Part shown: positions 8,085 to 8,166 of the stretch, in pieces
Position numbering within the stretch: the first letter of the stretch is position 1
Layout: each line of letters opens with the position of its first letter
Sequence record: MW822008.1
DNA from: Escherichia phage BF17
Reading direction: 5' to 3' (one strand)
Length of the DNA: 64,000 bases
Notes under the pieces: generated by a model
Seen by the model: only the letters and a program-made list of their open reading frames with translations
Told to the model about the DNA's origin: nothing
Database searches by the model: none
Translations under genes and position numbers: made by a program

Positions 8085-8166
8085 CCGGGCGTATCTCAAC
8101 GGTCTTCTAAACCGTCGTTAATCGAGTAACTGGAGTATGCAGGTTCGAGTCCTGTCGCCTGGGCCA
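8085..8166 (+). tRNA. tRNA-like element, anticodon UCU (Arg-type), no canonical D-arm; possible pseudogene
   Basis: Acceptor CCGGGCG/CGCCTGG pairs, T-arm GCAGG-TTCGAGT-CCTGT and CCA present, anticodon stem-loop ACGGT-CTTCTAA-ACCGT; only 7 nt where the D-arm should be. Confidence 0.35.

Follow-up and report, generated by a model that had tools for sequence, protein, structure and literature searches.

Directly downstream of a tRNA-Ser(UGA) gene in Escherichia phage BF17 lies an 82-nt element that represents a phage-specific, arginine-specific class of tRNA with a rewired D-arm. In all likelihood the element is a functional, phage-encoded tRNA-Arg(UCU) that reads AGA, and probably AGG, through a rewired core. 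It is predicted to act like tRNA-Arg(UCU), yet it fails the four-arm cloverleaf by which a tRNA is defined, having no D hairpin between its acceptor and anticodon stems. Everything else in that definition is present and covaries across 61 sequences: a 7-bp acceptor stem, a 5-bp anticodon stem with a 7-nt loop containing U33, a 5-bp T-stem with a TTCRA loop, and a discriminator base followed by CCA.

The element was found in a 64,000-nt stretch of the phage genome (sequence record MW822008.1, hereafter the window), where it occupies positions 8085-8166 on the + strand, encoded CCA included. It starts 4 nt 3′ of a canonical class II tRNA-Ser(UGA) (7991-8080, + strand), which is called by ARAGORN and scores 60.1 bits against the Rfam tRNA model RF00005. 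About 10 nt upstream of this tRNA-Ser is a sigma-70-like promoter sequence (7951-7980, + strand) composed of TTGGAA, an 18-nt spacer and a TATAAT box with the TG of an extended -10, which matches the consensus, and only the consensus, at 10 of 12 positions. The surrounding region (7000-9500) is 98-99% identical to Escherichia phages vB_Ec-M-J, WPEC3, Ecwhy_1 and others, and the phage is a jumbo coliphage of the Asteriusvirus type (121Q/PBECO4 group).

Reading along the + strand, the element opens with the 5′ strand of the acceptor stem (CCGGGCG, 8085-8091), which pairs with CGCCTGG at 8156-8162 to form 7 bp including G3:U70. A U8-A9-U linker (TAT, 8092-8094), the triplet CTC (8095-8097) and a single A at 8098 follow, so that only 7 nt (TATCTCA) connect the acceptor stem to the anticodon arm (ACGGT-CTTCTAA-ACCGT, 8099-8115, with the anticodon TCT at 8106-8108). 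A 23-nt connector then leads to the T-stem. It consists of an 8-nt bulge, CGTTAATC (8116-8123, consensus C-R-U-Y-A-A-N-N), the triplet GAG (8124-8126), and a D-loop-like segment, TAACTGGAGTAT (8127-8138). The canonical T-arm (GCAGG-TTCGAGT-CCTGT, 8139-8155), the acceptor 3′ strand and the discriminator G with its encoded CCA (8163-8166) complete the gene. The sequence thus agrees with the first-pass annotation in describing an 82-nt element after tRNA-Ser(UGA) with a paired acceptor stem, a T-arm, a CCA end and 7 nt in the place of a D-arm.

Standard tools largely overlook this gene. ARAGORN made no call at the element when run over the window, and it calls the rewired element in only 3 of 105 family loci. 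A whole-window search with RF00005 at the gathering threshold did not report the element either; in a search restricted to 301 nt it scored 32.6 bits (gathering threshold 29) with the D-arm deleted, 15 D-arm positions being replaced by 4 nt. No Rfam 15 family is dedicated to it. Folded as a single sequence, the element does no better than shuffled sequences (z = -0.61), so a lone sequence cannot show more than chance here; the comparative evidence can. A covariance model built from 61 relatives (R1) scores the element at 100.2 bits (E = 1e-24), whereas the window's ordinary tRNAs reach at most 30.7 bits. Overall, R1 separates members (82-101 bits) from ordinary tRNAs (at most 36 bits).

Matches to the element at E ≤ 1e-9 are present in 260 isolate phage records, 253 of which cover at least 80% of the 82 nt. 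These isolate copies, from about 250 genomes, are about 90% identical, and more diverged copies come from IMG/VR loci. Isolate carriers include Asteriusvirus, Felix O1-like phages, the Klebsiella phage Sugarland and its relatives, the KB57/BIS47 group, the Salmonella jumbo phage 7t3 and the Streptomyces phage Stanimal, whose unannotated copy lies inside a tRNA cluster and scores 87.5 bits with R1. The family's phages infect Escherichia, Salmonella, Klebsiella, Streptomyces and environmental hosts, spanning several host phyla. In the isolate records, the site of the element is variously annotated as "none", "hypothetical protein", "HNH endonuclease", "tRNA-OTHER", "tRNA-TERM" or "tRNA-Leu".

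Three pattern scans of IMG/VR added about 100 further loci; one of these scans was anchored in the 3′ connector and T-arm only, and another in the 5′ connector, anticodon loop and bulge only. In a scan of bacteria and archaea with one genome per species (185,579 in all), we found no member in isolate genomes. The 39 pattern matches in that scan comprised 35 chance matches and four true members, all four on short contigs of metagenome-assembled genomes. With only these four among 185,579 species, the family looks phage-specific by its sequence distribution.

We next consider which amino acid such a tRNA would carry. The determinants of arginine identity in bacteria are A20 (the main one), C35, U or G at position 36, and A or G at position 73 (PMC9976931). 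C35 and the bases at positions 36 and 73 are retained in all or most of the family, and A20 has a putative counterpart. An A directly follows the GG of the D-loop-like segment in 61/61 sequences (8134 in the window), its equivalence to A20 being drawn from the motif and not from structure. C35 is present in 61/61, 60 sequences have U at position 36 and one has G, and the discriminator is G in 32 and A in 24 (A/G in 56/61), with G in the window copy. In the anticodon loop, U33, C35 and A37 are invariant across the 61 sequences, 59 of which carry the anticodon UCU.

The anticodons of all members found are those of arginine: UCU for the most part, with rare CCU (in locus L039), ACG (L067 and L059), GCG and UCG. 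One contig, L113, carries three rewired genes with the anticodons UCU, GCG and UCG; it was the covariance model that picked up the UCG member. Run with no constraint on the anticodon, a structural descriptor returned arginine anticodons only (TCT 63, ACG 2, CCT 1, GCG 1) from 1.46 Mb of phage tRNA-rich loci, a search space with roughly a thousand tRNA genes. Alanine identity through G3:U70 was considered and rejected. The family's 3-70 pair is GC in 28 sequences, CG in 11, AU in nine, GU in seven and UA in six, so G3:U70 is no family feature, and it is present both in the window copy and in the canonical tRNA-Arg of phage G17.

The genomic setting of the element also resembles that of a tRNA gene. 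At all 105 member loci, the neighbouring tRNAs are on the same strand as the element. Member clusters, which hold up to 28 tRNAs, otherwise lack Arg(UCU); an ordinary Arg(UCU) is absent even from clusters whose 20-28 tRNAs serve most amino acids. A canonical Arg(UCU) stands alongside the rewired gene in two loci only (L031 and L055), which indicates that the two forms are not strictly redundant. Among Asteriusvirus genomes, 10 have a canonical tRNA-Arg(TCT) immediately 3′ of tRNA-Ser(UGA) and 23 have the rewired gene in that slot, with no genome carrying both. Together, the circumstantial support for a tRNA-Arg(UCU) role, as read from sequence, is strong, and the element is most likely a working AGA-decoding tRNA whose charging and ribosomal use we infer.

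These same observations bear on a different role, in which the element would be a tRNA-like decoy or regulator: a mimic of tRNA-Arg that, for example, soaks up a tRNA-Arg-directed nuclease, toxin or modification enzyme, or that binds arginyl-tRNA synthetase (ArgRS), without delivering arginine. Phage tRNA genes are known to be under pressure from defences that target tRNAs. EF-Tu or the ribosome might not accept so unprecedented a core topology, members occur in phages and in none of the isolate bacterial genomes among the 185,579 species genomes, and two loci keep the canonical Arg(UCU) beside the rewired one, all of which a decoy could accommodate. Against this, across the 33 Asteriusvirus genomes the rewired gene replaces the canonical tRNA-Arg(UCU) and never accompanies it, and it is nearly always the sole Arg(UCU) where 20-28 tRNAs are clustered. 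Furthermore, the features needed for decoding and charging are kept (the 7-nt loop, U33, A37, the 7-bp acceptor stem, the discriminator, CCA and the T-loop), and the isoacceptor variants CCU, ACG, GCG and UCG are those expected of a decoding family. We therefore consider a decoy or regulator unlikely.

Comparative support for the secondary structure of the element is very strong. We aligned 61 distinct 82-nt family members (alignment A3) and evaluated a structure of four helices: the acceptor stem, the anticodon stem, the T-stem and a helix, which we call helix P, between CTC at 8095-8097 and GAG at 8124-8126. Under this structure 98.2% of alignment cells are paired, and compensatory changes are seen in 18 of the 20 pairs. 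Covariation scored 0.828, compared with 0.204 for shuffled alignments (0/500 of which reach 0.828) and 0.10-0.16 for controls in which the pairing partner was slid. All seven acceptor pairs show double changes (99.5% of cells paired) and all five anticodon-stem pairs covary, while the T-stem is 99% paired, with double changes in three pairs, and its loop is TTCRA throughout. By column counts, the linker between acceptor stem and helix P is invariant (61/61), as are the C, T, A and A of the bulge at columns 32, 34, 36 and 37. At the terminal columns 80, 81 and 82, the bases C, C and A are found in 58, 45 and 56 of the 61 sequences, respectively; with C at column 81 in only 45/61, CCA is encoded in at most 45 members.

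Helix P is the unusual part of this structure, as it takes the place of the D-stem by pairing across the anticodon arm. It is paired in 61/61 sequences, with no one-sided changes and with double changes in all three pairs. At least seven triplet pairs occur in A3 (CTC/GAG, CGG/CCG, CAG/CTG, CGC/GCG and CAT/ATG, and also CTT/AAG, TCC/GGA, CAC/GTG and CGT/ACG), and CCC/GGG is found in a length variant outside this alignment. Pair 12-41 is UA in 39 sequences, AU in 11, GC in 10 and CG in one; pair 13-40 is CG in 49, GC in six and UA in six. This covariation does not stem from the search pattern, because the members in which helix P varies were retrieved with an anchor that excluded those triplets. 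The helix consists of only three pairs in most members. The single A at 8098, which resembles position 26 at the junction between helix P and the anticodon stem, falls in column 14 (A 44, C 13, T 4), and this column forms a fourth helix P pair with column 39 in 14/61 sequences; the window copy has an A.C mismatch adjoining the helix.

Several other pairings were considered and rejected. The GAG inside TGGAG was tested as a partner for the 5′ triplet: it stays constant across members in which the triplet differs, no double changes occur, and the middle pair is unpaired in 22/61. A small hairpin of minimum free energy within the 23-nt segment shows no covariation, and its 64.8% pairing equals that of shuffles. 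A G...C pair flanking TTA/TAA is not conserved. A register in which the CUUCUAA hairpin interrupts a giant D-loop and the 23-nt segment supplies a second anticodon arm failed on inspection, as its candidate stems are unpaired.

The segment that follows the 3′ strand of helix P resembles a D-loop. Its consensus, UAAyUGGAGUAU, can be matched by position to the canonical D-loop, from which we infer equivalents of A14/A15 at 8128-8129, G18/G19 at 8132-8133, A20 at 8134 and A21 at 8137. Ten of its 12 positions are invariant in the 61 sequences, a figure inflated by retrieval patterns that fixed most of the motif. An IMG/VR scan left free after the leading TAA recovered variants of 11 and 13 nt, and also sequences in which C replaces the first T ahead of GG; the GG was kept in all of them, and one length variant (L113) has C after GG. 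The motif AAYTGGA is common to this segment and to the D-loop of the canonical tRNA-Arg in sister phages, AATTGGATA, where it stands in the context GCAC-AATTGGATA-GTGC. In the 61 sequences, U8, A9, the equivalents of A14, A15, G18, G19, A20 and A21, and the T-loop TTCRA are invariant.

Taken together, helix P and the D-loop-like segment define how the core has been rewired. One strand runs continuously from CTC through A into the anticodon stem, like positions 22-25, 26 and 27-31 of a normal tRNA, and the opposite strand leads from the anticodon stem through the 8-nt bulge and GAG, the counterpart of positions 10-13, to U-A-A-y-U-G-G-A-G-U-A-U and the T-stem. The order of parts in the element is thus D3′-26-anticodon arm-bulge-D5′-D-loop, whereas a normal tRNA has the order D5′-D-loop-D3′-26-anticodon arm-variable loop. 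The purine/pyrimidine orientation of helix P, with CTC as its 5′ and GAG as its 3′ strand, runs counter to what a simple permutation by tandem duplication of a GCUC...GAGC D-stem would produce. In canonical geometry, the rewired junctions correspond to connections from position 9 to the top of the D-stem, from position 43 to the stacked D-stem strand, and from the end of the D-loop to the T-stem near position 48. These three changed junctions join parts that are near one another in the normal fold, so it is plausible, by analogy with canonical tRNA geometry, that the rewired chain closes into an L-shape. The nucleotides that a D-loop/T-loop elbow would need are conserved (U8, the A14, G18 and G19 equivalents, and T54, T55, C56 and A58 of the T-loop). 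The bulge at 8116-8123 possibly takes over the contacts of the variable loop.

The first-pass annotation had described the element as lacking a D-arm, which holds for its linear order only: equivalents of the D-stem (8095-8097/8124-8126) and D-loop (8127-8138) exist in rewired form, and the element is for this reason not D-armless. A truly D-armless tRNA of the kind known from metazoan mitochondrial tRNA-Ser(AGN), with the 7-nt and 23-nt connectors serving as flexible linkers, would account for the missing hairpin between acceptor and anticodon stems and for an anticodon that reads AGN codons, as it does in mitochondrial D-armless tRNA-Ser (PMC7609411). RNAalifold, applied alone to the family, also predicts three long helices only and does not predict helix P. 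Against this reading, helix P covaries perfectly, and the 12-nt segment bearing the tRNA-Arg motif AAYTGGA is almost invariant alongside a canonical T-loop; the mitochondrial kind is without such features and is described as flexible (PMC7609411). We regard a D-armless tRNA as very improbable.

The anticodon arm of the element closely resembles that of the neighbouring tRNA-Ser, as had been noted. The 21-nt stretch caacggtcttctaaaccgtcg (8097-8117) matches tRNA-Ser positions 8017-8037 at 19/21, the differences being anticodon positions 35 and 36. The proposal that the arm was copied from this neighbour is not supported, however, as the ACGGT/ACCGT stem is found in 7/61 members on unrelated contigs. 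The same tRNA-Ser stem also occurs beside an ordinary tRNA-Arg in phage EJP2 and in Erwinia phage Hallingskeid, phage WPEC5 has the rewired element without the tRNA-Ser, and the tRNA-Ser stem of the G17 type (CTTGT/ACAAG) is a variant form. Gene conversion from tRNA-Ser was rejected as the simplest explanation, since the stem appears in distant members independently of the neighbouring gene; the match is probably a coincidence. That the element is a decaying pseudogene or a tRNA-Arg/tRNA-Ser recombination chimera, the two readings offered alongside the non-canonical tRNA-like RNA that proved correct, would agree with the missing ARAGORN call, the 19/21 match and the ordinary tRNA-Arg at the same place in sister phages, but both are refuted by compensatory changes in every stem across unrelated phages (four helices kept over 61 sequences, 98.2% of cells paired), by loops that are near-invariant across Escherichia, Salmonella, Klebsiella, Streptomyces and environmental phages, and by the Ser-like stem in distant members whatever gene lies next to them, which leaves their probability negligible.

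We propose the following pathway for the rewired tRNA-Arg. It would be transcribed together with tRNA-Ser, probably as one precursor from the promoter-like site at 7951-7980, and excised by RNase P and 3′ nucleases. The triplet after U8-A9-U would pair 3′ of the anticodon arm, forming a helix of 3-4 bp that extends the anticodon stem and stacks on it as a D-stem does, and helix P would lead into the D-loop-like segment and from there into the T-stem. Docking of the G18/G19 equivalents on the T-loop and pairing of U8 with the A14 equivalent would then produce the L-shape and present the A20 equivalent to arginyl-tRNA synthetase. Charging by the host ArgRS would allow the tRNA to decode the frequent AGA codons of the phage, which make up 24.5% of arginine codons (8.5 per 1000 codons) in the open reading frames of the window.

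Why such an architecture would be favoured is a matter of conjecture, and our best guess is that it permits escape from a nuclease or another factor that recognises the canonical tRNA-Arg core. That the family is confined to arginine and to phages suggests that infection places a specific selective pressure on tRNA-Arg, one that could be tested with pairs of sister phages differing only in the form of their tRNA-Arg(UCU). A fuller version, which we advance tentatively as possible rather than probable, is that the family is a separate class of phage arginine tRNAs that translates with its D-stem across the anticodon arm, and that this topology was selected to hide the AGA decoder from a factor recognising the canonical core. 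The tRNA could be hidden from a tRNA-directed nuclease or toxin of the host or of a competitor, or from the phage's own attack on host tRNA. If escape from recognition of the canonical core is indeed the explanation, the element would be at once a new architecture among natural tRNAs and a new strategy of counter-defence.

Confirmation of the fold would make the element a natural, translating tRNA with a core strand topology unlike that of the universal cloverleaf, which would bear on the constraints on tRNA architecture, on how tRNAs evolve and on orthogonal tRNA design. There is also a practical consequence. With the element missed or mis-annotated, phage tRNA repertoires and analyses of codon supply have been compiled without this probable AGA decoder for hundreds of genomes, including those of such well-studied phages as Felix O1 and 121Q. 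We found no description of the rewired arrangement in the full-text literature on D-armless, permuted, non-canonical or atypical phage tRNAs and tRNA-Arg; subscription-only papers lay outside the scope of this search, and an earlier description there is possible. Reviews of non-canonical tRNAs (PMC7609411) and of tRNA identity (PMC9976931) make no mention of such a tRNA.

The closest relative of the element among known systems is the canonical tRNA-Arg(UCU), represented by Escherichia phages G17 and ph0011 and by E. coli argU. The two have in common the anticodon loop CUUCUAA, the 7-bp acceptor stem, the 5-bp T-stem with its TTCRA loop, the AAYTGGA motif with its putative A20 equivalent, G or A as discriminator, and CCA, as well as the genomic slot and the setting within tRNA clusters. 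In contrast to the canonical form, the element has its D-stem 5′ strand and D-loop 3′ of the anticodon arm instead of 5′, an 8-nt bulge returning into the D-stem replaces the variable loop, the T-stem is entered from the D-loop, and tRNA finders miss it.

Mitochondrial D-armless tRNA-Ser(AGN) likewise has no D hairpin and a UCU-type anticodon reading AGN codons, and mitochondrial D-armless tRNAs combine short connectors and degenerate T-arms with a flexible shape (PMC7609411). The element differs from them in having a covarying D-stem equivalent, a D-loop equivalent that bears GG, a canonical T-loop, and identity elements for arginine rather than serine. Given its D-stem and D-loop equivalents and its intact T-loop, it is not of the mitochondrial D-armless type.

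A non-canonical order of parts within the gene is also a property of the circularly permuted tRNA genes of the red alga Cyanidioschyzon merolae, reportedly described by Soma et al. in 2007. The ends of the element, by contrast, are normal and only D5′ and the D-loop are displaced, with no apparent route to a canonical cloverleaf. In the algal type, the 3′ half precedes the 5′ half and a circular intermediate restores a canonical mature tRNA. With its acceptor strands at the ends in normal order and CCA at the 3′ end, the element is not a permuted gene of this type, and its non-canonical connectivity would persist in the mature RNA.

Other RNAs arrive at tRNA-like shapes by different means. The 3′ tRNA-like structures of plant viruses and the tRNA-like domain of tmRNA achieve an L-shape and recognition by synthetases through another strand topology. 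Whereas these are parts of larger RNAs and do not decode through an anticodon, the element is free-standing and tRNA-sized, has an anticodon loop, and resides in tRNA clusters. Finally, tRNA-Sec, tRNA-Pyl and allo-tRNAs are natural departures from the 7/5 cloverleaf that are under-detected by standard tools (PMC7609411). Those tRNAs alter the lengths of their stems and keep the canonical order of arms; none of them forms its D-stem across the anticodon arm.

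In Escherichia phage EJP2, the slot just 3′ of tRNA-Ser(UGA), which in Asteriusvirus holds either a canonical or a rewired tRNA-Arg depending on the genome, contains a canonical tRNA-Arg(TCT) (L166 605-679) that differs from the other tRNA-Arg genes in this position and lies 113 nt from tRNA-Ser, rather than 4 nt. EJP2 represents a third state of the slot, and the genus has therefore seen this slot refilled at least twice. The adjoining tRNA-Ser(UGA) was compared between the window (8017-8037) and phage G17 (L002). In the clade of G17 and ph0011 this gene is nearly identical outside the anticodon stem, which reads ACGGT/ACCGT in the window versus CTTGT/ACAAG in the clade. 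All six differences between the two stems are compensatory, and from the sequences the change looks like the replacement of a single stem as a patch.

Some viral contigs carry several rewired tRNAs. The 30-kb contig L113 (IMGVR_UViG_3300046660_000420) has three for arginine (478-558, 3326-3405 and 3407-3496), whose anticodons are UCU, GCG and UCG; in the UCG copy an additional hairpin separates the D-loop-like segment from the T-arm. Contigs L039 and L059 encode two apiece. Those of L039 (12999-13080 and 13348-13429) have CCU and UCU anticodons; the UCU copy is divergent, with a lengthened D-loop-like segment (TAATTGGATAGAACAT) and an indistinct helix P, the covarying equivalent of the D-stem. 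On L059 (from 2689 onward), which derives from a 247-kb contig, one anticodon is UCU and the other ACG, and the bulge of the ACG copy is just 3 nt.

An interrupted copy is present on the minus strand of L104 (~6108-6183), scoring 39.6 bits with the covariance model of the rewired family. It is complete through ...GCG TAAT and then gives way to unrelated AT-rich sequence, a junction that may mark a recombination or insertion breakpoint within the D-loop-like segment. Within the window, the same model weakly matches 43107-43174 (+; 17.6 bits, E = 0.02), in a stretch of 35% GC where neither ARAGORN nor Rfam makes a call; this match is probably due to chance. Two adjacent plus-strand tRNA-Thr(UGU) genes (window 11924-11997 and 12004-12077), with nearly equal Rfam scores, are a tandem duplicate.

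Directly 3′ of the rewired tRNA-Arg in the window are three tandem plus-strand ORFs of 54 aa each (8188-8674), annotated in relatives as three hypothetical genes of 165 bp. All three begin with MTHEEWM, and the first two are clear paralogues. The Felix O1 reference record (AF320576) does not annotate its rewired tRNA (L004 1501-1580, corresponding to AF320576 25953-26032); 'ORF100' (26003-26395) overlaps part of it, and the start of this ORF is probably misannotated. In several phages, HNH homing-endonuclease genes directly adjoin the rewired tRNA or have annotated coding regions that overlap it; examples are Klebsiella phage Riker (L005 1589-2098) and the records of FO1a, JN01 and warpig. Such endonucleases could partly account for the spread of the rewired tRNA among unrelated phage genomes.
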